Program-made: the position numbers and the translations under genes | Part shown: positions 4,432-22,017 of the stretch, one piece after another | How positions within the stretch are numbered: the stretch's first letter is position 1 | Layout of the letters: each line of letters starts with the position of its first letter | Source of the DNA: a virus | Taxonomy: Duplodnaviria > Heunggongvirae > Uroviricota > Caudoviricetes | Virus record (IMG/VR): IMGVR_UViG_2908567220_000002 | Span: 33,901 to 97,900 of that record | Direction: 5' to 3' (one strand) | DNA: 64,000 nucleotides | Notes under the pieces: model-generated | Told to the model about the DNA's origin: nothing | Seen by the model: the letters and a program-made list of their open reading frames with translations, nothing else | Database searches by the model: none

Positions 4432-4584
4432 TTTTAGATATCCAAGATATTTACTCTAATTTAACCATAGTATTCCCAACCTCTTTTTATTGGGGGTTGG
4501 GTTCATTAAAGTCACCATTTTCTATTTCTTTCCCGTTAGAGGATATATTATTTCCAGATAAAGAAAGCAACTTCTTATGCAACT

Positions 4585-4689: not shown

Positions 4690-4690
4690 T

Positions 4691-4864: not shown

Positions 4865-4953
4865 TTAACTACCGCCCTGCCGGACAGCCTCCTGATGTTC
4901 TGAGGGCGCCCCCCTCCGGTTAAGGATTAAATTTTTAACAGTGCTAAATTTAA

Positions 4954-5310: not shown

Positions 5311-6007
5311 GCTCCTCTCCTTTGATGCGAATGCCAGCGGCGCGTGGCACATTAACTTCCACGATGCGCACAGTTGGTTTGTACATCTCAATCGCTGTCA
5401 GCCAGTCAGCTCCTGTCATGCGTTTTTCCGCATCGCCATTAGTCCACTGAACCGGCACACCAATAGCCTTCATCGCGATTTCTATTTCCCCGGCAATGGC
5501 GCTTTTTCCGCAACCAGTAAAACCAGATACAACGACAAGAACTTCGCCTTTGGCTGGTTTTATTTCCCGTGCTTCCAGTTCTGCTATGCGCTTACTTCCA
5601 TCCGCGATTACTCCCTCGTAATACTCACGCTGCTCGTTGAGTTTTGATTTTGCTGCTTCAAGCTCAACGCGCAGCTTCCCTACCGTTAGCGCAATCTCCT
5701 CGTTCTCCTGGTCGCGGCGTTTTATGTATTGCTGGTTTCTTTCCCGTTCATCCAGCAGTGCCAGTACGGTAGCCGGGTTAGCCTCTGCTATAAATGCTGC
5801 GTTTGCATAAGCCTGAGCATCTGTTTCAACCAGGCAGTTAGCATGACATTCTGCAATCACGCCACCGGGTTCTCCTTTCCATTTTTGACAAACAAAAACT
5901 CCTGTTAAATTGCCGTACTGGTTAACAGATGTATGCCCTACGATGTAGCTTCCTTTAGTTGCTTTTTCTGCCTTGGCACGCAGTACCTGATAGTCAATCT
6001 TGCTCAC
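5288..6007 (-). CDS. Ead/Ea22-like family protein (coiled-coil), tentative
   Basis: 239 aa starting MSKIDYQVLRAKAEKAT...; central coiled-coil region; typical nin-region gene. Confidence 0.45.
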   Translation of the reverse strand: MSKIDYQVLRAKAEKATKGSYIVGHTSVNQYGNLTGVFVCQKWKGEPGGVIAECHANCLVETDAQAYANAAFIAEANPATVLALLDERERNQQYIKRRDQENEEIALTVGKLRVELEAAKSKLNEQREYYEGVIADGSKRIAELEAREIKPAKGEVLVVVSGFTGCGKSAIAGEIEIAMKAIGVPVQWTNGDAEKRMTGADWLTAIEMYKPTVRIVEVNVPRAAGIRIKGEEHGNKTRR

Positions 6008-6488
6008 TGGTTGCCTCCTTCACAAAAATAATCCAATGTGTTTTATCGTTCTTGCCGGTGCGCTGGCTGATGATTGGTTTCGCGTCGGTTAGTGCCAATA
6101 TCTGGCGGACAGGCACTTGCGTTTCATTCCATTTAAAAATCAGAATGCCGTGTGGCCACAACACACGAAAGGCTTCTTTAAATCCCTGCCTCAAATCATC
6201 ACGCCAGGTATCTTTATTCAGCCGCCCATATTTCTTTCCCATCCAGGCGTTATCACCAACACGCTCAAGATGCGGAGGGTCGAATACAACAACCGGAAAC
6301 GATGCGTCTGCAAATGGTAATGCACGAAAATCTGCTATCAGGTCAGGGCTAATTATCAGTCGTCGTCCATCACATAATGTGTGCTCTTCCTTTCTGATAT
6401 CGCTAAATATCGCCCGGTCGTCATTCTTATCGAACCAGAACATGCGGCTGCCACAGCACATATCAAGAATGGTTGCCGGTGCACTCAC
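5994..6488 (-). CDS. Putative small SAM-dependent methyltransferase (DPPH motif)
   Basis: 164 aa; LDMCCGS (motif I-like) and VVFDPPH (motif IV-like). Confidence 0.55.
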   Translation of the reverse strand: MSAPATILDMCCGSRMFWFDKNDDRAIFSDIRKEEHTLCDGRRLIISPDLIADFRALPFADASFPVVVFDPPHLERVGDNAWMGKKYGRLNKDTWRDDLRQGFKEAFRVLWPHGILIFKWNETQVPVRQILALTDAKPIISQRTGKNDKTHWIIFVKEATSEQD

Positions 6489-6907
6489 TGCGCTACCTCC
6501 TGAAAATTACCCTGATAAAACGACAATATGCGCTGCATAACTTCGCTCTTCCGGCACTCACAGCAAATTATATTTTGGTGCCTGTCATAACGACGTATTT
6601 CTCCGTCTGGTAATGACCAGATAAGATCCGGATCAGCCACAGATGCTTTCTTCACTTTCGCCCTCGAGAGTTTTTTGCGGGCGTTTTGCCAGTCCTTACG
6701 CGCCTGCTCAGACGGGAATAACCCGTAACCAGAGTTGTATACATCGCCGCTGGCAACCAGCTCTCTTGCGAGAACGCTCATCAGATATCTTGTCGCACCT
6801 GTCTTGACTTCCAGTTGCCGTAACGTCTCACGCCCACTCTGGCGTACGAGTTCAACAACCTGTCCTTTAATTTTTTCCCGCTCTTCTTGTGTAAAAACTT
6901 TTGCCAC
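6485..6907 (-). CDS. Hypothetical protein conserved downstream of replication genes in both prophages
   Basis: 140 aa MAKVFTQEEREKIKGQVVELVRQSGRETL...; paralog at 53896..54318. Confidence 0.6.
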   Translation of the reverse strand: MAKVFTQEEREKIKGQVVELVRQSGRETLRQLEVKTGATRYLMSVLARELVASGDVYNSGYGLFPSEQARKDWQNARKKLSRAKVKKASVADPDLIWSLPDGEIRRYDRHQNIICCECRKSEVMQRILSFYQGNFQEVAQ

Positions 6908-6947
6908 AAGCCCTCCTGAAAATTACCTCATGACCAGAAATTAACAC

Positions 6948-8024
6948 TTACCCCCTGAAGCCCGGCGGAATTTCGTTATCCGGTTCAGAAATATGATTCA
7001 CACAACGCTGGTTGTTCGTGCCGCTTACCGGGAGCAACCAGGGGTTCTCAAAATTCCGGTCCGGTCCAAAAAACGTCGTCGCTCGCTGAACAAATTCCGT
7101 TCCCGTTTTCCCGGTAGCCGCCAAGTATCTTGCGTAACGCCTCACGCCATCCAGCATGGCCTCTGGTGGCACCCCCTCGCGTAATCTGGCCTTCCAGGCA
7201 CTGAAAGCGGATTTCTTCGGGTTTGCCCCAGCACGCAACGGGTACTCCCGCCAGACCTGTTCGAACACATCCGGATAATCCACTCGTCCCACAGACTGCC
7301 CGGTGTTTTCCGGGACTACCCGATCGGCTTCCCGCTGAATGGCGGAATCGGCTTCGGGCTGCTGCAGTTGGTGTGATTGCTCCGGCCTTGCGGTCATCAC
7401 CTGCTGCACAGCGCCCGAATCGGCTTTCAGCGCATACGCTGAATCGGCTTCCGGTGTCGTGCCTGCTAGCTGACCAAGATTGACGGTCTGAACATCCCCT
7501 GCCTGGTTCGTGGCGTTTTTTACGCCATGGACCATAGTGTTTTGATCTTCTTGATCTGTATCTTTATCTGTATCTTTATCTGTCGTGACTCGTCGTGACA
7601 TGTGCGTGACATTTCGTGACGCGCCGTGACAATCGCCATTTTGTTCCCGCTTTCTTTCCCTCTCTCGCTGCGCCCTCTTGCGCTCTGCCGGAGATTTTGC
7701 GGTTTGCGAAATATTGCCGTTGTCCTCTTTAAGCACCTGGCGTTTTTCCCATCCAGTGATTAAATCACCATCAAGTACCCGCCCCTGCATCGTCTGCAAA
7801 ATTGAATCAATTACCTCTTCTGTCACGTCGAGCGCACTTGCCAAATCTTCTGTCGTGACATCAATGTGACCTCGCGTGACATTTCGTGACGCGCTCACCA
7901 GGAGGTGGATATACACTGCCATCACTGTTGCAATTGGCTGCCCTGACACCCTGGCAATTGTTCGCCACTTAGGGTCATTTGGCATGTCATGCCATAATCT
8001 GAGCCAGGCGTTAGCCATACTCAC
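6948..8024 (-). CDS. Replication initiator (O-like), with internal origin iterons
   Basis: 358 aa; position after cro/YdaT; internal DNA iterons encode TDKDTDKDTD; C-terminal 20 aa shared with B's replication protein. Confidence 0.7.
   Translation of the reverse strand: MSMANAWLRLWHDMPNDPKWRTIARVSGQPIATVMAVYIHLLVSASRNVTRGHIDVTTEDLASALDVTEEVIDSILQTMQGRVLDGDLITGWEKRQVLKEDNGNISQTAKSPAERKRAQRERERKREQNGDCHGASRNVTHMSRRVTTDKDTDKDTDQEDQNTMVHGVKNATNQAGDVQTVNLGQLAGTTPEADSAYALKADSGAVQQVMTARPEQSHQLQQPEADSAIQREADRVVPENTGQSVGRVDYPDVFEQVWREYPLRAGANPKKSAFSAWKARLREGVPPEAMLDGVRRYARYLAATGKTGTEFVQRATTFFGPDRNFENPWLLPVSGTNNQRCVNHISEPDNEIPPGFRG
7545..7630. repeat. Putative replication origin iterons inside the O-like gene
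   Basis: Tandem TATCTTTATCTG repeats, then CGTGAC repeated about every 10 nt; second cluster at 7843-7886. Confidence 0.6.
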
Positions 8025-8089
8025 CTCTTCTGATACCGAATCTTTTTACTCACGAGTTGCCGGAAGCGATTCGATATGGCTATTGTCAG

Positions 8090-8515
8090 TCAATGTACTG
8101 CCACAGCATTTCCTGCCGGGCCACCACGGTTCATCTGATTGAAACCGGCGATTGCCACTGCGACAAAATCATCAGCGTCTCTCACCAGTCGCTCCCGCGT
8201 CTCCACCAGCTCCCGAAAATAAGCTGAACTGTGGCTGCGCATTCGGGCCACCAGCAGAGGTGGCATTGCTTTTTCGATAGCTGGTAACAACGCCTGAATT
8301 TTTTTAACCGCATCAGGGGTGTCTTTCTCCACCCAGCGGAAAATTTTCTGAGTATTGCGAGCCAGGGCTTCCGGATGGCTGTCGTCATACAGTTCCGGGA
8401 ACGTCATTCCCAGCTCGAAATACGCTTTGGTAATTTTCGCAGCCGGTACTTTTTCGCCGTCCGGATGCGCCCAGGCATTCATCGCCATGCGGATGTGTTC
8501 ATGCTTGATTTTCAT
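8090..8515 (-). CDS. YdaT-like protein (CII position)
   Basis: 141 aa MKIKHEHIRMAMNAWAHPDGEK...; paralog at 56864..57289. Confidence 0.65.
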   Translation of the reverse strand: MKIKHEHIRMAMNAWAHPDGEKVPAAKITKAYFELGMTFPELYDDSHPEALARNTQKIFRWVEKDTPDAVKKIQALLPAIEKAMPPLLVARMRSHSSAYFRELVETRERLVRDADDFVAVAIAGFNQMNRGGPAGNAVAVH

Positions 8516-8766
8516 GAATCAACTCCCATCAGCTTTTTCGTAGTAGTTTTATTCCTGCCAATAGTTAAAATTGCATCGGCAGAAAATAATCCGTTTGATG
8601 CAAGAGCGATTTTTTCAGCGTAATTTGTTTCGCCGGTATATTCTGTGCGAGGCAATTTTCCGTTATCCATCCATTTATAGATTGCTCTTTGGCTGACACC
8701 ACAAACGTCGGCCACAACAGCAACGCGAACAGTTTTGATTACATCTTCAAGTGTTTTCTGGTTCAT
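8512..8766 (-). CDS. Cro-like HTH regulator
   Basis: Likely start MNQKTLEDVIKT (tracked ORF 8512..8838); divergent from repressor gene. Confidence 0.6.
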   Translation of the reverse strand: MNQKTLEDVIKTVRVAVVADVCGVSQRAIYKWMDNGKLPRTEYTGETNYAEKIALASNGLFSADAILTIGRNKTTTKKLMGVDS

Positions 8767-8845
8767 ATCACCCTCACAATGTGAACTTTGAGTACATGCT
8801 ATAACAGAACTGACAGTACATTCAAGAGCGAATATCATTGAACTT
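8767..8845. promoter_or_regulatory. Divergent promoter/operator region between cro-like and repressor genes
   Basis: Repeated AGTACAT-type half-sites (GAGTACATG, CAGTACATT); similar GTAC motifs downstream of repressor gene at ~9320-9370. Confidence 0.45.
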
Positions 8846-9265
8846 ATGGTTCATGAAGATAAAGCGCGTAAAGAGTTCGCCAGTAGGCTTGCGCTAGCCT
8901 GTGAAAACGCTGGTTATGAACAACATGGAAGGCAGGCAGAAATTGCCCGTCGAATGAAATTAACACCAAAAGCGGTTAGCAAATGGTTTAATGGCGAAAC
9001 AATTCCTCGCCGGGAGAAATTAAGGGAATTAGCAACACTAATAGGAACAACACCAACCTATCTTTTGGGAGAGGATACAGAAGAAAGTGGACAGGTACGT
9101 TTCTATCAGGAGTTAAATCCAAGACAAAAAATCATCATTGACCTTCTGGACGAGCTCCCTGACAGTGAGACAGATGAACTTTTAAAAACTCTTGAAGAGA
9201 AAAAACAGAAGTACAATGCAATTTACGAAGAGTTAGCACGAAAGAAAAAACAAAAAGCCTCTTAA
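8846..9265 (+). CDS. Prophage repressor (RacR/DicA-like HTH, no S24 peptidase domain)
   Basis: 139 aa; N-terminal HTH region; C-terminal 50 aa nearly identical to B's repressor at 57655..58074. Confidence 0.7.
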   Translation: MVHEDKARKEFASRLALACENAGYEQHGRQAEIARRMKLTPKAVSKWFNGETIPRREKLRELATLIGTTPTYLLGEDTEESGQVRFYQELNPRQKIIIDLLDELPDSETDELLKTLEEKKQKYNAIYEELARKKKQKAS

Positions 9266-9559
9266 ACCAGCATAAATCCGGTAGCGCCTTCCTCCGGGTT
9301 TGTGCTTCACTTTATCCCATCTCATTTTTTTACACACAAAATGTACTAAAAGTACTTTACAACAATGAACGCAAAGTACATTATATGCCTGCCACCCACC
9401 CCGCCCCACAGAATGCAGGGCAATACTTCGAGTTACCAGGCAGTGGTCAGGGGGTAAGTAGCCAGCCCGAGGCGTAAGAACATGACGGCAGGGTTCAACT
9501 TTAACTATGCAGCAGGTTTTTGTTCCGCTACCCCGGCGTTAAGGGGAAATGAGGTCAAC

Positions 9560-9715
9560 ATGGATACTATCGATCTTGGCAACAACGAATCTCTGGTATA
9601 CGGCGTGTTTCCCAACCAGGACGGAACGTTCACCGCGATGACGTATGCCAAAAGCAAAACGTTTAAAACCGAATCTGGCGCGCGTCGTTGGTTGGTAAGA
9701 CATTCAGGTGAATAA
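9560..9715 (+). CDS. ydfA: YdfA-like protein
   Basis: 51 aa MDTIDLGNNESLVYGVFPNQDGTFTAMTYAKSKTFKTESGARRWLVRHSGE. Confidence 0.75.
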   Translation: MDTIDLGNNESLVYGVFPNQDGTFTAMTYAKSKTFKTESGARRWLVRHSGE

Positions 9716-9716
9716 A

Positions 9717-9863
9717 ATGAACGAAACAGAATTAAAACACGTTATCGCTCTGCTTCTGGAGGATGCAAAACGCCTCCAGCAACTGGAACCAAATGCAGGC
9801 ACTGAAGCCCGCATCTGGCTGGCATTGTACGCTATTGAGTCAGGTCGTGATGATGAAGGTTAA
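9717..9863 (+). CDS. YdfB-like small protein (tentative)
   Basis: 48 aa MNETELKHVIALLLEDAKRLQQLEPNAGTEARIWLALYAIESGRDDEG; hand-translated, below track cutoff. Confidence 0.55.
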   Translation: MNETELKHVIALLLEDAKRLQQLEPNAGTEARIWLALYAIESGRDDEG

Positions 9864-10144
9864 GCATCATCTAAGTTTTTTACATAGCGCCCATTAGATT
9901 CGGTAACAAGAACACCGGGATTTTTCTTAACTTTTGAGGCCACTGATTCAGCAAGGTCAGCAACAGATTCTTTGTCTTCATTCTTGCTTGAATATATATA
10001 TTCGGCATTAGGAAGACGGTAGGTGTTCCCTAAAGAGGTTGTAATCGTTCTGGAGAATCCCTTTGCTTCCATTCGTTCATGAAGCTTATCGTAATCAGCG
10101 GAACTGGAATCGCGAAGTTCGATCCTGACTGTAAATTTTGCCAT
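9860..10144 (-). CDS. Hypothetical protein encoded antisense to the early-left operon
   Basis: Start MAKFTVRIELRD with GGAGGA SD 4 nt upstream. Confidence 0.5.
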   Translation of the reverse strand: MAKFTVRIELRDSSSADYDKLHERMEAKGFSRTITTSLGNTYRLPNAEYIYSSKNEDKESVADLAESVASKVKKNPGVLVTESNGRYVKNLDDA

Positions 10145-10159
10145 TTTATCCTCCATTTA

Positions 10160-10455
10160 GGTTCTGGGTTAGAAATGGAGACCAATACGGGGCTACGTGT
10201 GGTCGTGCGCCGGACACGGATAAGAATCCGGCACTGACAGTTTACTGAAAGGATATTTCCCTGAAAAGTCAGGGCATAACACGAAAGCGTACGGCGAAGG
10301 CCTTCACCTATGAGGCTTGTCGTTAATTTCTTCGACCGTGCGCTTCCGGTTGTGGCACTCCGCGAAATGGCGCGGCGGTAAGTATGGCGGGGTTATTCCT
10401 TCCCCCGTTGAGGACACCGGGTTGTCAGGTTGACCATACGCTTAAGTGACAACCC
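10160..10455 (+). other. Conserved non-coding element (also upstream of DicF in prophage B at 59100-59410)
   Basis: ~290 bp highly similar between prophages with small indels, no conserved ORF; inverted repeats GGGTTGTCA / TGACAACCC. Confidence 0.5.
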
Positions 10456-10504
10456 CGCCATAACTCATACTGCTATAGATATATGGGGACTAACCGGAGG
10501 AAAA

Positions 10505-10726
10505 ATGATAGTTCAATGCACAGACGGGAATAATAAGCTGCTCTGGTCATACGATACCGTCAGCCAGAAACACATAATGAATATGACTTTTATAAAGGAC
10601 GGTACTCAACAAAAAATCATTACCGCCCTTGCAAGTGCATTAACTCAGGCGACAAGCCAAATTCTGCTATCTGATAACGTTAATGGAGTATCTGATATTG
10701 GCTCGATGACCGGGAGGGAGTGCTAA
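10505..10726 (+). CDS. Small hypothetical protein (73 aa)
   Basis: GGAGG SD 5 nt before ATG; MIVQCTDGNNKLLWSYDTVSQKH...; lies in the segment that replaces DicF. Confidence 0.4.
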   Translation: MIVQCTDGNNKLLWSYDTVSQKHIMNMTFIKDGTQQKIITALASALTQATSQILLSDNVNGVSDIGSMTGREC

Positions 10727-10930
10727 TACAACATTCCAGTAACCCGAGTGGGGCACGGTAATATTGGCAGGGAATCGTTCATAGAAACCGCCGTAATAGG
10801 TAAAACGCCCGCCCCGCTTGAAAGCCTGGTAATTTGAATCATCCATTAATAAAACATTAATCTGGTGTGAACATTGAACCCTGACAAGGTCACCATCATT
10901 CATGTGTTCACGACTATGTATATGGGACAT
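10667..10930 (-). CDS. Small hypothetical protein (88 aa), convergent with and overlapping the preceding ORF by 60 nt
   Basis: AGGAG SD then ATG; MSHIHSREHMNDGDLVRVQCSHQINVLLMDDSNYQAFKRGGRFTYYGG... Confidence 0.5.
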   Translation of the reverse strand: MSHIHSREHMNDGDLVRVQCSHQINVLLMDDSNYQAFKRGGRFTYYGGFYERFPANITVPHSGYWNVVLALPPGHRANIRYSINVIR

Positions 10931-11456
10931 AAACACTCCTTTTTACTGTGGAAAGCTAAATCATATCACGGTCTATGAAGTAAAAAGTGAATTTCGTGAT
11001 GCGGTGAATGCGGCTCAGCGCACGCAGAACAGTTAAAAACACAAGTGTTATGGGTGAATCATCCGGCGTTAATTGCTAACTGGTTAACGTCACCTGGAGG
11101 CACCAGGCACCGCATCACAAAGTTCACTTAGGTGATGAAAGGTAGAGAAAATGTTGAATGTAGCTATTGAAAACCAGAACGGGTGGAATTATAGTGCACC
11201 TGCACCTCATAAAACGGGTGCCGGGCGTGGAAACCCGATGTTCACTAACGCGCATAACCGCGCTCAGGCGGTTTTTTTATGCGTAATGCACAGCCACATT
11301 CAGATTATGGTGGGACGTGCAGGGCAGCCGCAAGGCTGGCCGGGTTCGTTAGTGACCGGTATTTCCACCCCTGTACGTCTCACCACCCTTATGGTCGTGG
11401 AAAACCTTGGTGGTGAGTTAATCAAATTCACTAACGAGGCTGCTATCATGGCTACT

Positions 11457-12002
11457 ATCCCTACCCTTTCTCAACCTGACGTAACCATCGAAAATGGTCG
11501 CGCTGTCACTACGTCTGTTGCGATCGCCGAGTTCTTTGGCAAACGCCACGACAATGTTATTCAAAAAATAAAATTACTGGATTGCTCCCCTGAATTCACT
11601 GCCCTTAATTTTAAGGTGAGCGAATACACCGACTCAACCGGGCGCAAACTCCCTATGTACCAAATCACCAAAAACGGCTTCGTTTTCCTGGTGATGGGCT
11701 TCACGGGCAAAAAAGCCGCAGCTTTCAAGGAAGCCTACATCGCTGAATTCGATCGCATGGAGGCAGAGTTGTACCAGCTTAATACCACTACCACAGACAA
11801 AATAATTCCTGGTGATGGTCGCACTCTCGTTGTTCACTTCGACGAACGCGGCAATATCAAATTCACCGAAACCGTTCCTGACGGCGCTCTCGTCTGTACT
11901 CTGGATACTTTCCGCTTTTATCTGGAGAAGCAGGGGTGGACTCTTGTAAACAGGAGCGCAATTAAAAATATGACCGTCGAGCAGTTGCTGAGTATTAAAT
12001 AG
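11457..12002 (+). CDS. Rha-family phage regulatory protein (antirepressor-like)
   Basis: Start MATIPTLSQPDVTIENGRAVTTSVAIAEFFGKRHDNVIQKI matches Rha N-terminal domain; tracked ORF 11151..12002 extends upstream. Confidence 0.65.
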   Translation: MPTLSQPDVTIENGRAVTTSVAIAEFFGKRHDNVIQKIKLLDCSPEFTALNFKVSEYTDSTGRKLPMYQITKNGFVFLVMGFTGKKAAAFKEAYIAEFDRMEAELYQLNTTTTDKIIPGDGRTLVVHFDERGNIKFTETVPDGALVCTLDTFRFYLEKQGWTLVNRSAIKNMTVEQLLSIK

Positions 12003-12048
12003 TTTTCTGGAATTTTCTTAATGCGACAAATTTATTAAGGAGATAATT

Positions 12049-12270
12049 ATGATTGCTCATCACTTCGGAACTGATGATATTCCTCGTCAGTGCGTGACTC
12101 CCGGTGATTATGTTATTCATAAAGGAAGAACATATATTGCTTCGGTAAACAATATAAAAAAACACCGGCTCTATATTCGTGATTTTTCCACACAACACTG
12201 TATTAATGAAACCATGATTAAAGTCTTCCTTGATCGTGATGGTTTACCTGTAAAGGCGGAGTCGTGGTGA
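12049..12270 (+). CDS. Hypothetical protein (73 aa)
   Basis: AAGGAG SD; AT-rich; between Rha and exonuclease genes. Confidence 0.4.
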
Positions 12271-12387
12271 GCTGTAATAAAATAACTACCCCAATACGAC
12301 ATTCAGTTTAATAAATACATCAGATTCGATTCTTATATGCCAGCAATGGCAGTGACTTGTTCACCCCTAAATCTGTAATGAGGTTTA

Positions 12388-14826
12388 TTGATGAGCACGA
12401 ATAAAGAAGTGTTTGCGCTATATTGCGAAGCTAAAAATGACAAGGTCAGAAAGCGTCTCGGTATTAAAGGTGGCTTTTTCTGGATCGAAGCCAAAAAACT
12501 TTCCGTTGCAGTTTCCCGCTGTATTGCCGCTATGGACGATGCTGGCTACGACGAAGATGATTTCAAAAAAACAGTTCGCGTCCATTTGCCTGTTCTAAAT
12601 GACCTGCCACCTGAAGGCGTATTTGATACTGATTTCTGTAACCGTTACGAAAAAGGTGGAGAAGATGGCATCACAATGATGCCGGTACCGTCCAGCAACA
12701 GCGATGAAAACAGTAACGCCGCTAATACTAACGTCAACGGCGAAGACATGATTGAGATTGAGGAGAATATTCTTCTGCCGGTTTCAGGTCAGCTTCTGCC
12801 TGTTAGATGGCTGGCACAGCACGGCAGCGAAAAACCTGTCACGCATGTTTCACGGGATGAACTGCGGGCATTACATAACGCACAGGAAGAAAAACTTCCC
12901 GCCGTTACCGCTCTGGCCATCTCAAATAAAGCAGTGCAACTCGAACCGCTGGAGATTCGGGATTTGTACAAACTGGTGCGGGACACTGACAAAGTTTTTC
13001 CCGCCCCCGTAAATTCAGACCTGGGACTGATGACTTCCTTCATCGAAGCATACCTGGACGCTGACTACACCAATCGCGATCTGCTTACAAAAGAGTGGAT
13101 GAAAGGAAATCATGTTTCGCGAATCAGCCGCACACCATCCGGCGCTAACGCTGGCGGCGGTATTCTTACCGATCGCGGCGAAGGTTTTGTACACGATGAT
13201 GCATCACTGGCGCGCGACGTAGCCACTGGCGTGCTGGCCCGTTCAATGGACGTGGACATTTATAACCTTCATCCGGCACACGCTAAACGCGTCGAGGAAA
13301 TTATCGCTGAAAATAAACCGCCCTTTTCTGTTTTCTTCAGCAAATTCATCACCATGCCGGGCCACAAGGATTTCTCCCGTGCCATCGTGGTTGCCTCCGT
13401 GAAAGAATCACCAGTTGGTATAGAGGCTATGCCCCACCGTGTCACCGAATACCTGAATAAAGTGCTGACTGAAACCGATCATGCCAACCCTGATCCGGAA
13501 ATCGTGGATATTGCCTGCGGTCGCTCCTCTGCCCCGATGCCGCAGCGTGTAACTGAAAAAGAAAAACATGATGAAGAAAAACCGCAACCATCTGGCGCAA
13601 TGGCAGATGAACAGGCAACGGCTGAAACAGTGGAACCGGATGCAACTGAACATCATCCGGACACGCAGCCGGTGGATGCTCAGCCACAGGTGAATTCTGT
13701 TGATGCGAAATATCAGAAACTGCGGGCAGAACTCCATGAAGCTAGGAAAAACATTTCGCCTAAAAATCCTGTCGACGCAAACAAATTACTGGCAGCCTCT
13801 CGCGGAGAATTTGTTGAAGGGATTAGTGACCCGAATGATCCGAAATGGGTTAAGGGGCTCCAGACTCGCGAGTCTTCGAACCAGAATCAACCAGAAGTGG
13901 AACAAACCAAGCCAGAATCGGGACAAAATAGCCAGGATGCACACCAAAATGAACCAAAAACGATACATCCGGAGCCAGCAGCGCAACATGCACAGAAAAA
14001 TCCCTGTAATGTTTGTGGGGAAACTGGCGGGGGCACATGCCCTGACTGTGCCTCAGTAATGGGTGACGCAACTTACCATGAGACATTCTGCGAGGAAGAT
14101 TCAGATGAATCTCAGGAAAAAGCTCCGGAGGAGATGGAAAACCCTGAACATCCGCATCCGGAAAATACTGACAGCAATCAGCATAACAATAGCGGTGATA
14201 AAACTGACAGGACGACAAATTCCTTAATTAATATGCACGGTCATCAGAAAAGAACATCCACCAGCAGAATGTGTCACCATCTGATGATCGACCTTGAAAC
14301 AATGGGAAAAAATCCTGATTCCCCGATTATCTCAATAGGTGCAATATTTTTCGATCCGCAAACCGGAGAGATGGGACCAGAATTTAATAAAACCATCGAT
14401 CTGGAAACTGCTGGCGGAGTCATTGATCGGGACGCGATCAAGTGGTGGCTGAAGCAATCACGCGAAGCGCAATCTGCCATTCTGACCGATGAAATCCCGT
14501 TAGATGATGCACTGCTGCAATTGCGGGAATTTATCGCCGAAAACTCCGGTGAATTGTTTGTTCAGGTCTGGGGAAATGGAGCCAACTTCGACAACGTGAT
14601 TTTGCGCCGTTCATATGAACGGCAGGGTATCCCCTGCCCGTGGCGCTACTACAACGATCGCGATGTACGCACAATCATTGAACTGGGAAAATCCATAGAC
14701 TTCGATGCCAGGACGCCTATTCAATTCGAAGGCATACGCCACAATGCGCTGGATGATGCCCGTCACCAGGCGAAATACGTTTCAGCAATCTGGCAAAAAC
14801 TGATCCCGAATCAGTCTGATTTTTAA
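12388..14826 (+). CDS. Large early-left protein with C-terminal DEDDh (DnaQ-like) 3-prime-5-prime exonuclease domain; exodeoxyribonuclease VIII-like position
   Basis: 812 aa; C-terminal [25 protein letters not shown] motifs; [15 protein letters not shown] zinc-ribbon-like motif; C-terminal ~190 aa identical to B's 60109..62580. Confidence 0.7.
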
Positions 14827-14889
14827 TGTTCAACCCCAGTCGTCGCCCCCAGCTATAGTGGCGGCGACCATGATTAGCGAACGATACTC

Positions 14890-15138
14890 ATGGCAAGACT
14901 TATTCTGCTCACTGAGTGGGCAAAAGAGGAATTCAGCGATCCGGTCCCTACTCCGGGCACGTTAAGTAAATACGCTAAAGCCGGAATGATATTTCCTCTC
15001 CCCAAAAAAGTTGGAAGACACTGGCGAGTGGATCCGCGAGCTCGCTTTGTCGGAATGGTAAACAAGCCGGAGGTGATCGCCACAGATCACCCTGCTTTAA
15101 AGAGGATACTGGAAGATGGCACGCCCGCGAAAATATAA
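14890..15138 (+). CDS. xis: Excisionase-like protein
   Basis: 82 aa immediately upstream of and overlapping int; identical copy at 62644..62892. Confidence 0.65.
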   Translation: MARLILLTEWAKEEFSDPVPTPGTLSKYAKAGMIFPLPKKVGRHWRVDPRARFVGMVNKPEVIATDHPALKRILEDGTPAKI

Positions 15139-16246
15139 AACCGCTGTTCCGGGATTATCTCCGTATTTTGACAAAAGAAATAACAAAGTTTACTGGCGTT
15201 ACAGGCATCCCATCACAGGTAAAAATCATGGACTCGGCAGTATTGACCAGAAACTGGCGGAAACCATTGCAGCAGAAGCGAACAGCCGTCTTGCCAGACA
15301 ACAAATGGAGCAAATGCTCAGTCTGCAGGAGAAAATTATTAGTGATACCGGCGGCGCATCAACCGTTTCCATTTTTCTGAATAATTACAGAAAAATTCAA
15401 CAGGAAAGATATGAGAACGGAGAGATCAAACTCAGCACGCTGAAGCAAAAAGCGGCTCCTCTCAGGGTGTTTGATGAACGTTTTGGAGCCAGGCCGCTAG
15501 ATGCCATAACAGTAAAAGATGTGGTATCGGTGCTGGAAGAATACAAGGCAAAGGGACATAACAGAATGGGACAAATTTTCAGGAAGGTATTGATCGATGT
15601 TTTCCGGGAGGCTCAACAAACGGGTGATGTCCCGCCAGGCTTTAACCCGGCTGAATCGGCAAAAAAACCGCAAGTGCGGATATCAAGACAGCGACTGACT
15701 TTTGATGAGTGGATGATGATTTATAACGCAGCGGAAAAGGATGGTTACTTTTTACAGCGCGGCATGCTGCTGGCACTGATGACGGGCCAGCGTCTTTCGG
15801 ATATTTGCAAAATGCAGTTTTCGGATATCCGGGATGGTTACCTTCATGTCGAACAGCAAAAAACAGGAGCCCGGATAGCCATTCCTCTGGCTCTGCGTTG
15901 CGACAAATTAAATCTTACCCTGGGTGACGTGGTGTCATCCTGTCGTGATTACATCCTTAGTCCGTGGTTATTGCACCATCATCACGCTAAGGGGATGGGT
16001 AAGCGCGGCGGGATGGTTAAACCAGCAACGTTAACAGTCGCATTTAAAAAAGCCCGGGATTCTGTGGATTACAACTGGCGTGCTAATGGCACGCCACCCT
16101 CTTTCCATGAGCAAAGATCTTTATCAGAACGATTGTTCAGAGAACAGGGAATTGATACCAAAATTTTGCTGGGCCATTCGAATCAAAAAATGACCGATGT
16201 TTACAACGATGCACGCGGTAAGGAGTGGAAAAAACTGGTCATTTGA
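15116..16246 (+). CDS. int: Tyrosine-type phage integrase
   Basis: 376 aa; terminal gene next to att region; intact version of B's disrupted copy. Confidence 0.9.
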   Translation: MARPRKYKTAVPGLSPYFDKRNNKVYWRYRHPITGKNHGLGSIDQKLAETIAAEANSRLARQQMEQMLSLQEKIISDTGGASTVSIFLNNYRKIQQERYENGEIKLSTLKQKAAPLRVFDERFGARPLDAITVKDVVSVLEEYKAKGHNRMGQIFRKVLIDVFREAQQTGDVPPGFNPAESAKKPQVRISRQRLTFDEWMMIYNAAEKDGYFLQRGMLLALMTGQRLSDICKMQFSDIRDGYLHVEQQKTGARIAIPLALRCDKLNLTLGDVVSSCRDYILSPWLLHHHHAKGMGKRGGMVKPATLTVAFKKARDSVDYNWRANGTPPSFHEQRSLSERLFREQGIDTKILLGHSNQKMTDVYNDARGKEWKKLVI

Positions 16247-16260
16247 TGACCAGTTTTGCA
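16234..16260 (+). terminator. Hairpin overlapping int stop, followed by T-rich tract
   Basis: Perfect palindrome CTGGTCAT-TTG-ATGACCAG then TTTTGCAG; three direct TTTTGCAGA repeats at 16253-16286 may be integrase arm sites. Confidence 0.4.
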
Positions 16261-16302
16261 GAAGAGTTTTGCAGAGATTTTGCAGAGAAAATTAGAAGCG
16301 GT

Positions 16303-16419
16303 ATCCGGCAGAGAACATAAACACCCACGGATCCAGTCGTACCGCGTCTTTCACGGGGGTTCCATTAAATTTATAGCTGGCGGTTGTGTCGATATCCATG
16401 TACCACACTGGTAGGTTTC
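16303..16419 (-). other. ompW: Phage-borne ompW 3-prime end fragment marking the att region / prophage A-B junction
   Basis: Encodes ...WYMDIDTTASYKFNGTPVKDAVRLDPWVFMFSAGYRF*, matching the OmpW C-terminus as recalled; upstream sequence is not ompW. Confidence 0.6.
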
Positions 16420-17005
16420 AAAAAACACAATAACCAATTGTATTTGAAGCAAAAAAACAAGACTTTGAGATGTTTTTTTGTACCTTTTTTTATGCTTTTA
16501 ACTGTCTGATTTTATTGAAATCTTTTTTAGTTTTGCAGAAGGAATTTTTTACTTGATTGTAACTTTTTCGTTTTTTTGGGGCTAATTGACGCGCAATGCT
16601 GGGCGGGGAGCGCACAGCCAAAAAAACCGAAATTGACCGCTAATTACTGCCAATCATCATCGCTCTGATTGAGCGTAAATCATTCAGGTTATTCAGTTCT
16701 TCCTTCTGCTCTCGCTGACGTCAATAAATCCCATCATTGCGATCAACCTCATCCTTAACCATTGATGCGAGCAGTTCTTCCAGTTTCTGCGCTGACAGCT
16801 TTACCTGGTGATCTTCAGCATCTTCCCGGGCTATTGTGGTTCGCGCAGTGGCTGATTTTGCTGACATCACCACAGGGGGCAGACGGACCATTGAACCATG
16901 GCCTCCGGAACAAATAAGGGCAAAAATAACAACCACTATCGAAAGCTCACAAACTAACCGCAGCACGTTCCTGCATACGACGTGTCTGCGGCATAATCCC
17001 AATGA

Positions 17006-17275
17006 TTACTCCCTGACAGGATTTGCAGGCCACTCAATATCAGGTACAGTTGATGTATCAACACGATTCAACAATACCCGATATTTATTCCATGCCTCCA
17101 GCAACGATCTTTCTTCCTCCGTTGCGATTTCCAGATCTACAGCATCCTGCAGTGGCGCAATATACTCACTGAATTCCTGGATGTAGAACTGTGTGGTGAC
17201 GGTCTTCCAGCCATTCGGCTCCTGCTGTATCGAAGCATACCAGGCTATTTCAATATCGCTATGCTGCGGCAGCAT
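17006..17275 (-). CDS. Tail fiber assembly (Tfa)-like protein, truncated variant
   Basis: 89 aa; C-terminal ...[50 protein letters not shown] is a Tfa C-terminus; 3-prime part repeated at 18055-18195. Confidence 0.6.
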
Positions 17276-17331
17276 TTAACCCCTTGTAATTCATCGCCAT
17301 AATTGATTTAATTCACAAATAAAACTATAAC

Positions 17332-18000
17332 ATGGTGAAATCAATGAAAAAAAACACAGATGATGGGGCTAAAATTTACACACCACTTACCCTAAAGCTT
17401 TATGACTGGTGGGTTTTGGGAGTATCAAATCGGCTTGCATGGGGATGTCCTACAAAGGAACACCTTCTTCCACACTTTCTGGAACATGTAGGTAACAACC
17501 ATCTGGATATTGGTGTTGGAACTGGGTTTTACCTTACTCACGTACCTGAGAGTAGTCTGATATCTTTAATGGATTTGAACGAAGCTAGCCTGAACGCGGC
17601 ATCTACAAGGGCTGGGGAATCAAAAATTAAACATAAAATTAGCCATGATGTTTTTGAACCTTATCCCGCGGCGTTACATGGTCAATTTGATTCCATTTCC
17701 ATGTTTTACCTTCTTCACTGCCTGCCTGGAAATATATCTACAAAAAGCTGTGTAATACGCAATGCGGCGCAGGCCTTAACTGACGATGGAACTCTATACG
17801 GAGCCACAATTCTTGGCGATGGAGTTGTGCACAATAGCTTCGGTCAAAAACTGATGCGCATTTACAATCAGAAAGGCATCTTTTCAAACACAAAAGATTC
17901 CGAAGAAGGCTTAACACATATACTCTCAGAGCATTTCGAGAATGTTAAAACCAAGGTTCAAGGTACTGTAGTAATGTTTTCCGCTTCAGGGAAAAAATAG
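17332..18000 (+). CDS. Class I SAM-dependent methyltransferase, substrate unknown
   Basis: 222 aa; Rossmann SAM motif LDIGVGTGFY; AT-rich; flanked by direct repeats of Tfa 3-prime sequence. Confidence 0.8.
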   Translation: MVKSMKKNTDDGAKIYTPLTLKLYDWWVLGVSNRLAWGCPTKEHLLPHFLEHVGNNHLDIGVGTGFYLTHVPESSLISLMDLNEASLNAASTRAGESKIKHKISHDVFEPYPAALHGQFDSISMFYLLHCLPGNISTKSCVIRNAAQALTDDGTLYGATILGDGVVHNSFGQKLMRIYNQKGIFSNTKDSEEGLTHILSEHFENVKTKVQGTVVMFSASGKK

Positions 18001-18054
18001 CATCCAACCGCAGCACGTTCTTGCTTAAGACGTGCTGCGGCATAATCCCAATGA

Positions 18055-18237
18055 TTACTCCCTGACAGGATTTGCAGGCCACTCAATATCAGGTGCAGTT
18101 GATGTATCAACACGGTTCAGCAACACCCGATACTTTTTCCAGGCTTCCAGCAATGAGGTTTCTTCCTCCGTTGCGATTTCCAGCTCAACAACAGTCTGAA
18201 CGTACCGGGAACAGCCTCCTTCAGAGCTTGAAGGATA
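18055..18237 (-). pseudogene. Tfa C-terminal remnant with no start codon, directly after the stf stop
   Basis: Encodes ...[43 protein letters not shown] in frame after stf TGA; no ATG. Confidence 0.55.
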
Positions 18238-21200
18238 TCAATGTTCGCTTCCTGTTAACTGCCGGACAAGTGCAACCAGTTCGCTTACCTGATTTTCCAG
18301 AGTGCTGATCCGGGTGTCTGCTGTTGCCAGATTTTCACGTAGCGTTGTGTTTTCCTCTTCCAGCGCGGTAACGCGATCATCTGTTTCACGGGCGACCTGA
18401 ACAAGTAAACCCGTCACGGCGGCGTAGTCAACATTAAGATAGCGCGTTTCTTCGCGTAGCTCGTTGCCGTCAACGGTCGGGCCTTGCAACTCTTCACCAT
18501 AATGAGTAAACGATCCCACAGCTTCTGGTATCGCCTCCATTACTTCCTGTGCAATAACGCCAGCATAAGGCATCCCGTTTTCCCTGAGCGTGTAGGTGTA
18601 TCCGTTCATTTTACGGATTGCTTTCGTCGCGTCGCTGATAACGAGAATATCGTCTTTAAGGTCGCGGTCTGATGACTGATTCAGCGTTGTGCAATTAATA
18701 GCGCCATTTACATCAAACAACTGGCCTGCTGACGTTTTTTGCGCATAAAACAGATACGCAGCAGACGTTCCAACCTCAAAAACGTTTTGTCGAGTACTGG
18801 AACCCCACACCCTGACAGAAAACGGCAGTTCTGCATTGCCTGAGTTCTGTAAAACAAAACGATTACCAGTCCCTGATTGCTTTGTAAGGGTTAAATCAAC
18901 GGTTGAGTTAACCTCATTCTTGTTGATAGTGAGCGCCTGCGCTGTAGCCCCGTTAACAGCACCTGTTTTGAGTTGAACCGCGCCGTCATTACCATTTAAC
19001 AGTATCTCAGCTCCGCTAAAGAAATTTTTTAGCGACAGCATCTTACTTACGCCGACTGATGAACCCAACGCCCACGCGAGAGAATTACCGGTGCTATCAA
19101 ACCCACGTACAAAGCAATCCATTTTGCTATAGTCTGACGTGCTTCCAAGGACATCAATTCGCCCTCCGCCAGATTTTACCGGACTAGATGTGGTTAACGA
19201 CCTGACAGTTATATCCTGATTCCATCCGGAAACAACAACCTGACTCCACGCTGTCCAGTTTCCATTAACAACAAAGCGAACGTATATACGTTTTGTGTCG
19301 CTGTTAATCAGCGTTTGCATGTTCGCATAATCTGAATCCCTAACCTTACGAGTCGACTCTACACGGAGCAAAAAGTTACCGGTTACACCGTCAGGCTTGT
19401 TGGTGATATTTGCACCACCTCCAGAGGATGGACAACTATAGTATTTAACCGCCCCGGCATCTGACCTGATGGTCAGGTTGTTAAGATCAACCTTCTGGCC
19501 GCCAATGTTTTCAGGCTCGATGGCTCCTGCTATCCCGGCACTGAACGTAGCAGCGGCTGAAAACGCTGTCGTACCTTTGAAAGCCAGTTGACCACCAATC
19601 GTTAATCCCTTGTCGAGTTTCGCTTGCGTGATCAATTTGCTGTTTTGTTTCTGATCAGGACTCTCGCCAAAAGCCAGATCCCCATTAGTATCAATTCCAA
19701 GATACTTTTGGTTCACGTTGTCTAACTTAAACCCAATGGACACATTTTCAGAAGAACCGGAACGCGTTAAAACCAACGGCGTGTGCTGTACTCCATAGAT
19801 GCTGAGCGTAGTTGCCGATGAGTCAGTGTCGGTATTTGCAATCTCAATCGTTCTGCTTTTAATTTTATACGCTACTGTGAGATCACGGACTTCAACCCTC
19901 CCGTCGTGACGAACAACAAGATCCCCTCCTGATGTCCCCCCTGCTGTCTTTGCCCTGATGCGAACTTCGCCAAGCGAATCAGTGTTAGGACCAGCATAGA
20001 TTATGCCGCGCTCTGTGTTATCGCCAGTATAAAACCGCAAAGCGGTGACTCCACTGTCTGCCCGCAGGAAGACTGACGGTGTACCTTTTTTGATTGTCAA
20101 GTCACCGGTCATTGTATCGCCGGTTTTTTTTACCTGCGCATCGTTCGTTACGTTGCCAAGTCCAACATCCGATTTCGACGGCTTGTTTGCCGAGCCGTAT
20201 AGCTCATTGACGCTAAAAGTCCCGTTGTTAAGCCGGGCATCGGTGCCGGCATAGATCTTAATCTTCGCGGTTGAGTAGTCGATATTGATCGCTGACCACG
20301 TATCGCCGCACCGCGAGAATATACCAGAACCGTGGCTATAAATGGTCGCCGTGCTTCCGGTCGGCTTATCACCGCGCCAGAAATGACCACCTTTGTCACG
20401 CAGAGCTTTTAAGATCTCTACATCGCTCATCTTGCCGTTTGTTGATATCCCGCTACCGCCAAGACCGAAAGCGCCTGTAAGCATAGCATTAGAAAGACCC
20501 AAATCTGCTTTAGTCGGCTTGTTTAACTGGTCGTAAATCCTTACAACGGGGCTTTCAACATATCCAGAAGGCGCGGCGGTTTGCTTAACAAATCCGTCTG
20601 GAATGTATAATTCCGTGCGTGCCGTCTGCGCCAGTACCGCAACCTTTGCGCCGTTGATAAATGCGCGCTGGAAGGCCCAAACCTCAATAAAGCCATCACC
20701 TTTAACCAGGCCGTAACGCATCTGGTTGTTATCGGTCAGCCCGGTTGACCCTAAGCGGCGTATACTCAGATGACGAGAAACATTATCCGCACTAAGCAAA
20801 GAAGGCATACCGCGCGCCGAGATCTCGATAAAGTCAATGTTTCCGTAAGGGGAGCCGTAGTTACCAGCGTTAGTAACCATTAGCGTTACATGGCAATTGC
20901 CGCTTCCGGGATCGGAAAGTTTCGCGATCTTTATGTAAAAAGACTCATTACCAGTAACAACGGGCCAATCGTATTGCGTCATCGGGCTGACGAGTCCCCC
21001 GACCTTGTCGAGATATTCTTTCGCCTTGTTCTCTGACGCTTTAGCGTTGGTTTCGCTGACCTTTGCTGCTGCCTCACTATTTTTCGCGTTGGTTTCTGAT
21101 TTTTTGGCTGCTGTCGCGGAGTTTGCCGATGCAGTTTGTGAGTCTGCTGCCGCCTGTGCGCTGTTATCCGCATTCGTCTCAGACGTTTTTGCGGCCTTCG

Positions 21201-22017
21201 CGGAATTTCCTGCCGCCGTTGCCGAGGAAGCTGCACTACTGGCACTTGATGATGCGTTCGTTTCTGATGATTTCGCTGCCTCTTTTGAGGCCGCCGCATC
21301 CCGGGATGAGGTGGCAGCTTCTGACGCTTTCGTGGTCGCGGTGGATGCAGAAGTGGCTGCAGATTTTTGTGACGCTGCAGCATTCGTTTCTGACGTTTTC
21401 GCCGCACCGGCACTGGTGGCTGCCGCGCTTTTTGAAGACTCTGCGGCGGCAGCACTTTTTAATGCTTCAGTGGCCTTTGTTGATGCCGTTCCTGCGCTGG
21501 AAAAAGCCTCCTGAGCCGACGTCGCGGCCTGTCCGGCTGACGTTCTGGCTGCGCGTGCTGAGTCTGCAGCATCAGTCGCATGGGTTGCCGCCTCACGGGC
21601 TGATGTGCCGGCATCGCTGGCTGACTTCTTCGCGGCTGCCGTGTTCTGTGCCACTGCGGACGCGTTACGCGCCACCTCTGCCACCATCAGTTCAAAGCGG
21701 CGCAGTGCCTCCGGACGGGCATCATCCTCCGTCATGGCACCGAGAAAATCATTCAGCGTACCCGGTTGTGAGTCTTCATACACGGTGATGGTCCCGGCAT
21801 GCGATGGCGGGAAGCCTTCCACCAACAGAATAACGCTGTACTGACCGTACTCAACGTCCATGCTGTAACGCCCTGCTTCATCCGGATTTTCAGATGCCAC
21901 CGTGTTCACCACCACCGTGGTGCTGTTACGTTTTGCTTTCAGCTGGATTGTGCAGTTCTGTACCGGTTTACCTGCACCGTCTTTCAGTACACCTGAAATC
22001 TTTACTGCCATATTCAC
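18238..22017 (-). CDS. stf: Side tail fiber protein (Stf-like) with Ala/Ser/Thr-rich repeats and C-terminal chaperone-type domain
   Basis: 1259 aa; low-complexity KSAATSA.../SETNA... repeats; C-terminal segment resembling autoproteolytic tail-fiber chaperone domain. Confidence 0.8.
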   Translation of the reverse strand: MNMAVKISGVLKDGAGKPVQNCTIQLKAKRNSTTVVVNTVASENPDEAGRYSMDVEYGQYSVILLVEGFPPSHAGTITVYEDSQPGTLNDFLGAMTEDDARPEALRRFELMVAEVARNASAVAQNTAAAKKSASDAGTSAREAATHATDAADSARAARTSAGQAATSAQEAFSSAGTASTKATEALKSAAAAESSKSAAATSAGAAKTSETNAAASQKSAATSASTATTKASEAATSSRDAAASKEAAKSSETNASSSASSAASSATAAGNSAKAAKTSETNADNSAQAAADSQTASANSATAAKKSETNAKNSEAAAKVSETNAKASENKAKEYLDKVGGLVSPMTQYDWPVVTGNESFYIKIAKLSDPGSGNCHVTLMVTNAGNYGSPYGNIDFIEISARGMPSLLSADNVSRHLSIRRLGSTGLTDNNQMRYGLVKGDGFIEVWAFQRAFINGAKVAVLAQTARTELYIPDGFVKQTAAPSGYVESPVVRIYDQLNKPTKADLGLSNAMLTGAFGLGGSGISTNGKMSDVEILKALRDKGGHFWRGDKPTGSTATIYSHGSGIFSRCGDTWSAINIDYSTAKIKIYAGTDARLNNGTFSVNELYGSANKPSKSDVGLGNVTNDAQVKKTGDTMTGDLTIKKGTPSVFLRADSGVTALRFYTGDNTERGIIYAGPNTDSLGEVRIRAKTAGGTSGGDLVVRHDGRVEVRDLTVAYKIKSRTIEIANTDTDSSATTLSIYGVQHTPLVLTRSGSSENVSIGFKLDNVNQKYLGIDTNGDLAFGESPDQKQNSKLITQAKLDKGLTIGGQLAFKGTTAFSAAATFSAGIAGAIEPENIGGQKVDLNNLTIRSDAGAVKYYSCPSSGGGANITNKPDGVTGNFLLRVESTRKVRDSDYANMQTLINSDTKRIYVRFVVNGNWTAWSQVVVSGWNQDITVRSLTTSSPVKSGGGRIDVLGSTSDYSKMDCFVRGFDSTGNSLAWALGSSVGVSKMLSLKNFFSGAEILLNGNDGAVQLKTGAVNGATAQALTINKNEVNSTVDLTLTKQSGTGNRFVLQNSGNAELPFSVRVWGSSTRQNVFEVGTSAAYLFYAQKTSAGQLFDVNGAINCTTLNQSSDRDLKDDILVISDATKAIRKMNGYTYTLRENGMPYAGVIAQEVMEAIPEAVGSFTHYGEELQGPTVDGNELREETRYLNVDYAAVTGLLVQVARETDDRVTALEEENTTLRENLATADTRISTLENQVSELVALVRQLTGSEH

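Follow-up and report, generated by a model that had tools for sequence, protein, structure and literature searches.

RecE scaffolds fused to a predicted 3'-5' DEDDh exonuclease domain in two tandem lambdoid prophages

Introduction

The window analysed here is a stretch of 64,000 nucleotides (positions 33,901 to 97,900 of IMG/VR record IMGVR_UViG_2908567220_000002) in which the early region of one lambdoid prophage (prophage 1, 1-16246) is followed in tandem by a second, complete prophage (prophage 2, ~16.3-64 kb). Each carries a large exonuclease gene on the + strand, gene A in prophage 1 (12391-14826, 811 residues) and gene B in prophage 2 (60109-62580, 823 residues). We conclude that both products are very probably the non-catalytic scaffold of RecE fused to a compact DexA-like DEDDh 3'-5' exonuclease, the variants having been generated by homologous recombination at a conserved leader, at the linker and at a Chi site on the border of the catalytic domain.

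RecE (exonuclease VIII) is encoded with RecT by the Rac prophage. The RecET pair is a workhorse of recombineering, and we know of no mechanism for the ~600-residue non-catalytic part of RecE. An earlier reading of the window, made without database searches (the sequence-only reading), had assigned genes A and B to a modular exonuclease family distinct from RecE.

Results

The shared catalytic domain is DexA-like

The two long open reading frames of 812 and 823 codons reported by the sequence-only reading are both present. Gene A is assigned 811 residues from an ATG at 12391, located 7 nt past a GAGG; the open reading frame list begins at TTG 12388, and database copies of the protein have 811 residues. 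The C-terminal domains (A residues 622-811, 14254-14826, +; B, 62008-62580, +, identical in DNA to that of A) match the Rv2179c-like family PF16473 over the full length of the profile (E 4e-66 for A; 222.4 and 222.9 bits against a cut-off of 27; A residues 629-801, B residues 641-813), and neither protein matches PF12684/DUF3799, the PD-(D/E)XK nuclease. These matches, which include the Rv2179c-like search suggested alongside the sequence-only reading, bear out its description of an identical DnaQ-like exonuclease in both proteins (100% over the C-terminal 190 residues, with the DEDDh residues present) that lacks the nuclease fold of RecE.

The catalytic residues of A (D634, E636, D734, H784 and D789) align with D7, E9, D119, H186 and D191 of T4 DexA, the DexA residues being those listed by Kang et al. 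(NAR 2025, PMC12153337). MAFFT displaced motif III by two columns, and the H-x4-D register was placed by eye. The catalytic residues are kept in 67 of the 74 DEDDh-type proteins of the viral loci surveyed below. T4 DexA is also the only solved relative found by sequence (8KEL/8KEN, E 1e-6), and Rv2179c itself gave no match in the PDB sequence search even at E 10. Beyond the catalytic residues, the tetramer-forming D90 of DexA corresponds to D706, which is invariant in a four-sequence alignment. Of the two DexA residues that recognise 5-hydroxymethylcytosine, W152 aligns with Tyr754 and D169 falls on Phe771, between D770 and D772, in a region where the alignment is weak. The DEDDh fold predicts 3'-5' polarity, opposite to that of RecE, a 5'-3' double-stranded DNA exonuclease, and the position of the DNase DexA as sole solved relative points indirectly to DNA as the substrate.

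The N-terminal regions are variants of the RecE scaffold

Preceding the catalytic domain, residues 1-613 of A match positions 1-602 of the RecE equivalog profile (NCBIfam NF007259, E 6e-290). Alignment with K-12 RecE (58% identity overall) holds throughout the RecE-type N-region (residues 1-461, 12391-13773, +) and breaks down past the linker. Residues 246-626 of B match positions 271-603 of the same profile. The whole-protein cut-off of NF007259 (1269 bits) is missed by both proteins, with A scoring 964 bits over positions 1-602 of 877 and B 283 bits over positions 271-603. An Exonuc_VIII domain search, proposed as a check on the sequence-only reading, separates the two proteins: A matches PF06630 in residues 55-187 (96.5 bits against a cut-off of 25), and B gives no PF06630 match.

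The linkers of A (A462-621, 13774-14253, +) and B (B474-633, 61528-62007, +) are 59% identical in protein and ~75% identical in DNA. That of A contains the segment previously quoted as common to both proteins (A465-489), Q/E/N-rich spacers, the four-cysteine motif CxxCGxxGGGxCPDC (Cys539/542/550/553, 14005-14049, +) and the sequence MGDATYxETF; the linker of B likewise carries the four-cysteine motif. The shared middle segment and the cysteine motif of the sequence-only reading were thus both recovered, and the alignment with K-12 RecE, in which the linker elements also occur, identifies this as RecE's own linker. Since A1-613 match the RecE profile and the linker is that of RecE, the family is not separate from RecE, and the assignment to a distinct family does not stand. 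The modularity of the protein and its placement at the recE position, in the order kil, exo, xis, int, are supported.

A and B are 19% identical over residues 1-240, which is background, and 81% identical over the last 350 residues (BLASTP). Between these regions lies a conserved core common to all scaffold variants, A266-362 (13186-13476, +) and B242-338 (60832-61122, +), for which comparison of profiles built from 71 A/RecE-type and 36 B-type N-regions gave an hhalign probability of 88.7% (E 2.5e-6), with confident columns there only. The same segments are paired by BLASTP at E 0.005, and in the NCBIfam RecE profile, as in PHROG 26058, the two fall on one and the same stretch. Residues 1-240 of B (60109-60828, +) form a B-specific module belonging to PHROG 5943 (function not assigned), with no detectable similarity to A or RecE by BLASTP, hhalign or segment identity, and the B N-terminus has no PDB relative by sequence even at E 1. 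The claim that the N-terminal ~470 residues are unrelated therefore stands, at the level of sequence, for residues 1-240 and fails for the core, where homology of the N-terminal regions is found over ~100 residues at the level of sequence profiles. AlphaFold models built on alignments of 85-99% identical homologues reached a mean pLDDT of 47 (B 1-480) and 33 (A 1-470), too low for structural comparison. The proteins can thus be described in four parts: a variable N-module of ~240 residues, the conserved core of ~100 residues, the linker with its four-cysteine motif, and the catalytic domain.

The N-module is flanked by conserved stretches

Both genes are preceded by a conserved leader, as the sequence-only reading had noted, that forms the 5' untranslated region, in gene A with the GAGG ribosome-binding site (leader A, 12309-12384, +; leader B, 60027-60100, +; 88% identity over 76 bp). 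Among the IMG/VR loci the 76-bp leader precedes 49 of 49 B-type and 14 of 18 A-type DEDDh genes, and 2 of 48 PD-(D/E)XK genes. The leader had no Rfam match at E 1, a fold z-score of -1.13, no promoter consensus, and one terminator-like hairpin that is within shuffle expectation. A structured RNA or a promoter was accordingly dropped as an explanation on the Rfam, fold z-score and promoter-consensus results, and the leader is treated here as a conserved untranslated region and recombination junction. Within the DEDDh lineage the N-module lies between two conserved stretches, the leader and the linker, and this is the pattern that cassette exchange by homologous recombination would leave. The earlier proposal that the N-module was replaced by recombination fits this arrangement; the exchange of the catalytic domain, described next, is the more informative swap, and that of the N-terminal module is secondary.

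The scaffold is combined with different enzymes

An exhaustive HMMER search with A241-600 recovered 143 representatives (50% identity clusters) among 1.84 billion proteins, so that the scaffold family is, judged by sequence, narrow. A search with the 171-residue linker returned only fragments of less than 300 residues, which were of no use for architecture, and two later homologue searches returned close relatives only. A Pfam scan of 61 long, diverse representatives found PF06630 in 37, PF12684 in 15, a DEDDh domain in 10 and a fused RecT in 2, with no recognised catalytic domain in ~34. Among the viral loci, the RecE/A-type N-module is found joined to PD-(D/E)XK, to DEDDh or to no catalytic domain. 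The B-type N-module occurs with DEDDh only, in a sample picked by similarity to the C-terminal half of B. The DEDDh fusion is therefore found on two N-modules, and it occurs beside different integrases. The pairing of the scaffold with a nuclease of opposite polarity, with a RecT domain or with nothing suggests that it has an autonomous targeting role. Two further observations concern this family. A nuclease-less RecE scaffold of 661 residues lies immediately 5' of a lambda-type gam-bet-exo cluster (L083:6001-9728), and precomputed Pfam annotations of B-type proteins (P0121-P0240) list the newer families PF27430 and PF27432.

The exchange is seen most directly in a near-isogenic RecE/RecT twin of gene A. 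Protein P0243 (locus L171) has an N-terminus 97% identical to that of A and ends in PF12684. Its locus has the same backbone as the window, helix-turn-helix (HTH)-DUF1391-Rha-KilR, and 3' of P0243 it continues with RecT, Lar, DUF1187, xisR and intR at the Rac site beside ttcA. DNA homology between this locus and the window covers the immunity region up to ~14206, ending just 5' of the catalytic domain. The exchanged block thus consists of PD-(D/E)XK, recT, lar, rcbA, xisR and intR on one side, and of DEDDh, xis and an ompW-type int on the other.

Annealase genes accompany RecE-type and not DEDDh-type loci

In both prophages 63 bp separate the stop codon of the exonuclease gene from xis, and no RecT-, Redβ-, Erf- or Rad52-type gene and no Gam was found by PHROG comparison of all early-left open reading frames of both prophages. 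Pfam comparison of all other early-region open reading frames likewise found no annealase or Gam in either prophage, nor did tblastn with K-12 RecT, a second RecT type, and lambda Bet, Exo and Gam. No Pfam or PHROG match suggested Abc2, GamL or MuGam, for which no search by name was made. These searches agree with the sequence-only reading that no RecT/Bet/Erf-like gene separates the exonuclease from xis, and its model is not contradicted by an annealase nearby. One candidate, the PF14350 'Beta_protein' gene at 41925-42992, was rejected as an annealase, as it belongs to the P4-beta / PD-Lambda-2_C family, which is unrelated to lambda Bet.

The absence extends to related phages. We surveyed 160 IMG/VR viral loci, the 80 closest to RecE and the 80 closest to the DEDDh half. 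An annealase adjoins the gene in all 77 evaluable RecE-type loci (57 RecT, 19 of the second RecT type, confirmed by Pfam, and 1 lambda Bet), the remaining 3 of the 80 contigs ending inside the gene, whereas none of the 80 DEDDh-type loci has one (Fisher p 9e-47, for loci that are not independent).

Chi sites are abundant, oriented and present at the fusion point

The window contains 20 Chi sites (GCTGGTGG) between 1291 and 62019, where 2.18 +/- 1.51 are expected (~9x); none of 100 shuffles reached 20. The - strand carries 16 of the 20 and is, given the position of cos, the strand on which they are active when RecBCD enters from the right end of the virion. All those of prophage 2 lie within 44.5-62 kb, its right arm, with none in the 26 kb of structural genes. 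The same enrichment separates the surveyed loci. Outside the gene itself, DEDDh loci have 0.29 Chi per kb and 3 of 80 have none, as against 0.041 per kb and 61 of 80 with none for RecE loci, a difference in density of ~7x (Mann-Whitney p 7e-23).

Lambdoid phages that carry neither annealase nor RecBCD inhibitor are described, in the main text of Zheng, Casjens et al. (Genome Res 2025, PMC12315714), as rich in Chi sites that are oriented and clustered at the right end; for phage LLS the same text counts 23 Chi, of which 20 have the active orientation, with clustering at the right end, and reports that RecBCD boosts its growth. The window shows both features of this 'no Rec module, high Chi' class, as no annealase or RecBCD inhibitor was found and many oriented right-end Chi sites are present. 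With no annealase, no Gam and oriented Chi, the window phages therefore fall in the class that recombines via host RecBCD-RecA.

One Chi site lies in each gene at the border between linker and DEDDh domain (14258-14265 in gene A and 62012-62019 in gene B, both on the - strand), within the codons for T-S-T-S. It is found at the same offset in 79 of the 80 DEDDh loci and is missing from K-12 recE; at the window density, a Chi site would fall within ±10 bp of a given point by chance with a probability of ~0.6%. A tract of 1,993 bp that comprises the DEDDh domain, xis and int is identical between the two prophages (14254-16246 and 62008-64000) except for one mismatch. It begins 4 bp before the junction Chi and runs in the direction of the invasive strand made by Chi-activated RecBCD. 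The tract looks like a recent Chi-stimulated gene conversion between the prophages, and it is plausible that the junction Chi is a hot junction for module exchange. The single mismatch (15302 versus 63056) creates an in-frame stop (63056-63058) in the int of prophage 2; excision of prophage 2 may depend on the integrase of prophage 1.

Other features of the two prophages

Directly 3' of gene A, prophage 1 encodes an excisionase (xis, 14890-15138, +, PHROG 629) and an integrase (int, 15116-16246, +, PHROG 7244/1), and in prophage 2 xis and int (62644-64000, +) directly follow gene B. Prophage 2 runs from the tail fibre gene (18241-22017) through the portal to the large (39071-40993) and small (40971-41513) terminase genes, and the position of cos, ~41.5-41.9 kb, was set from these terminase genes (39071-41513). 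The lysis, Q and replication genes are on the - strand, with the repressor, exonuclease, xis and int on the + strand.

Both prophages occupy the ompW site, one behind the other (window 16247-18238). In CP024978.1 (locus L168), int is followed by a 38-residue OmpW fragment and a tail-fibre-assembly gene, and elsewhere the same prophage is found singly beside an intact ompW, with the same xis-int arrangement by ompW. The exact protein of gene A is present on 23 public contigs, CP024978.1 included, and an exact 41-mer taken from the gene had no match among the GTDB species representatives.

Several other loci have recognisable cargo. Prophage 2 carries a Rosmer-type defence pair at 50190-51924 (-), comprising RmrA (E 6e-105; HTH and M78 peptidase) and RmrT (E 5e-25). 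In prophage 1 a Ser/Thr protein kinase gene (PADLOC PD-T4-6 / Stk2 / mad6-like, E 1e-37) overlaps a gene for a PP2C-type phosphatase (2937-4431, +), possibly a defence or regulatory pair. The interval between cos and lysis genes (41925-43554) contains the PF14350 'Beta_protein' gene on the + strand and an adjoining 'cll'-like gene on the - strand, which together look like moron or defence cargo. Above the Rfam gathering score we found hok/sok at 2521-2696 and 52240-52415, isrK and the C4 antisense RNA at 11202-11390, at the start of a Rha/ASH-family gene (11151-12002), and DicF at 59414-59465, just 5' of the operon segment with gene B.

Discussion

Relation to known systems

The closest known protein is RecE. 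It occupies the same operon position and shares with A the N-terminal ~600 residues, including PF06630, and the core, the A465-489 segment and the four-cysteine motif are common to A, B and RecE. It differs in carrying a PD-(D/E)XK/DUF3799 5'-3' nuclease, whereas A and B have the DEDDh domain and no recT, lar or rcbA 3' of the gene. With T4 DexA, all five DEDDh catalytic residues of A are shared. DexA, however, is a stand-alone enzyme of ~200 residues from a lytic phage, and the domain of A and B is compact, lacking several DexA loops, and forms the C-terminus of a protein of ~800 residues from a temperate phage. Stand-alone DexA-type homologues are widespread, with 751 phage records. One compact E. 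coli homologue, EcD of the HREX system (Kang et al., NAR 2025, PMC12153337), resembles the window domain in size class and conserved catalytic residues; it is stand-alone and without an equivalent of D90, unlike the window domain, which keeps D706, aligns Tyr with W152, is fused to the RecE scaffold, and is encoded in an early operon that is probably repressed.

The gene itself is not new, since it is annotated already and since the main text of the lambdoid phage survey (PMC12315714) describes DnaQ-like 3'-5' nuclease genes near int as well as RecE-like proteins ('RecE-2') without a nuclease domain. It is present in 4,063 of 5,426 complete E. coli genomes (75%), with up to 7 copies (in O157:H7), under the names 'exonuclease', '3'-5' exoribonuclease' and 'exodeoxyribonuclease VIII', and has its own PHROGs, 2082, which gene B matches end to end, and 20376. 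Homologues of gene B fill more than 7,000 clusters at 90% identity, one of which has 23,183 members. What that main text reports, namely DnaQ-type nucleases near int and RecE-like proteins in lambdoid phages, and oriented right-end Chi in those phages that lack an annealase and a RecBCD inhibitor, is also seen in the window. It does not mention that the DnaQ-type domain is fused to the scaffold, that the fusion strictly excludes annealases, that it goes with Chi-rich backbones, or that a Chi site marks the junction. In the literature searched we found no description of the gene as a RecE scaffold whose catalytic domain has the opposite polarity, of its near-isogenic RecE/RecT twin, of annealase presence as an all-or-none matter, of the link to Chi-rich backbones or of the conserved fusion-point Chi.

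A tentative mechanism

We propose, with the balance of probability somewhat against us, that the fusion proteins are DNA 3'-5' exonucleases that are made on induction and serve phages dependent on RecBCD, Chi and RecA. As the gene is at the end of the pL early-left operon, 3' of kil, it would probably be expressed on induction or infection and not in the lysogen. Its scaffold would direct the protein to whichever DNA ends or partner RecE addresses, where the DEDDh domain would digest away single strands with a 3' end. Such trimming would blunt the ends and allow RecBCD to load or reload, so that phage DNA ends would enter the Chi pathway rather than single-strand annealing. In E. coli, RecBCD requires flush ends, and it fails to reload onto double-stranded DNA ends that bear 3' tails unless 3'-5' single-strand DNA exonucleases remove the tails (PMC5592934); tail trimming would therefore channel phage ends to RecBCD, Chi and RecA. 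Taken as a whole, with the identity of the proteins and this mechanism together, it is the best explanation available to us, and we judge its chances to be just under even.

A number of points weigh against the proposal. The main text of PMC12315714 states that 3'-5' exonucleases usually lower recombination because the invasive 3' tail is destroyed, and its authors do not count the int-proximal DnaQ-type genes as members of the Rec module. As the Pfam family is named for an RNase, an RNA substrate is possible. The association with Chi-rich backbones could be plain linkage in one phage lineage, and the 160 loci are phylogenetically non-independent. The stand-alone E. coli DexA homologue is reported to act in defence and not in recombination (PMC12153337). 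Finally, the activity, the substrate and the expression of the protein are all predicted from sequence.

The precedent of EcD leads to one alternative, which we consider improbable, in which the gene would serve defence or superinfection exclusion of the HREX type, its DexA-like domain degrading the 5-hydroxymethylcytosine (5hmC)-type DNA of T-even-like phages and so guarding the lysogen. EcD cuts T4 DNA in vitro and confers plasmid-borne protection from T4 (PMC12153337). The window domain belongs to the same compact DexA-like group with all catalytic residues kept, and the prophages hold other defence-like cargo (the Rosmer pair, the kinase and the PD-Lambda-2_C-like gene). However, because the gene follows kil in the pL operon and its leader has no promoter consensus, it is probably silent in the lysogen. 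The recET genes of Rac, at this same position, are silent until sbcA mutations arise. In addition D90, whose loss defines EcD, is kept as D706 and W152 aligns with Tyr754, PADLOC returns only a weak, generic Cas-associated DEDDh match (E 1e-4), and a defence role leaves the 600-residue RecE scaffold unexplained. A further alternative, which we rate as improbable as the defence role, is a nuclease directed against recombination or signalling, which would strip 3' tails and thereby restrain RecA filaments, SOS or illegitimate recombination, or an exoribonuclease resembling Rv2179c or RNase AS that would act on host or phage RNA in lytic growth. The name of the Pfam family (Rv2179c-like exoribonuclease) and the many PGAP entries called '3'-5' exoribonuclease' favour the RNA form, and the general statement in the main text of PMC12315714 that 3'-5' DNA exonucleases cut recombination favours the other. 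Yet among solved nucleases the domain is nearer in sequence to the DNase DexA than to any RNase. Its union with the scaffold of a recombination nuclease that acts at DNA ends speaks for a substrate of the same kind, and an anti-recombination function fits poorly with phages in which Chi sites have built up to promote recombination.

Less probable still is the model of the sequence-only reading, a stand-alone exonuclease equivalent to RecE, with an unrecognised annealase or none, that carries out RecET-like recombination. Operon position and scaffold are indeed those of RecE, but a nuclease of opposite polarity would produce 5' tails, from which neither the known annealases nor RecA carry out strand invasion, and an annealase is found neither in the two prophages nor in any of the 80 related loci. 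It is very improbable indeed that the gene is a passenger without function, left by mosaic recombination and moving with the xis-int module. That the int of prophage 2 is already a pseudogene, and that some database copies are frameshifted (for example PPompW_EH2246), would agree with such passive carriage. Against it, 4,063 E. coli genomes hold intact open reading frames longer than 800 codons in which the catalytic residues are conserved, with up to 7 copies in a genome, and the DEDDh fusion recurs on two N-modules and beside different integrases.

Implications

The reading we prefer, a RecE scaffold fused to a DexA-like exonuclease that would serve RecBCD-dependent phages, can be extended, although we regard the extension as unlikely, to one in which the RecE scaffold serves quite generally to deliver enzymes to DNA ends and the DEDDh version is the missing phage part of the RecBCD-Chi strategy, a 3'-tail trimmer through which lambdoid phages rich in Chi and devoid of an annealase would load host RecBCD at their own DNA ends. 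If this were true, the fusion would be a phage recombination module of a new functional type, and possibly a tool to alter the outcome of recombineering, and the conserved junction Chi would mark the site at which modules are exchanged between phages. The scaffold variants provide natural 'domain-swap mutants' for study of the non-catalytic part of RecE, in a gene that is among the commonest prophage genes of E. coli. The exclusion of annealases, together with the Chi-rich backbones, links this gene to the recently recognised RecBCD-dependent class of lambdoid phages and leads to the testable idea that these phages may contribute to their own recombination.

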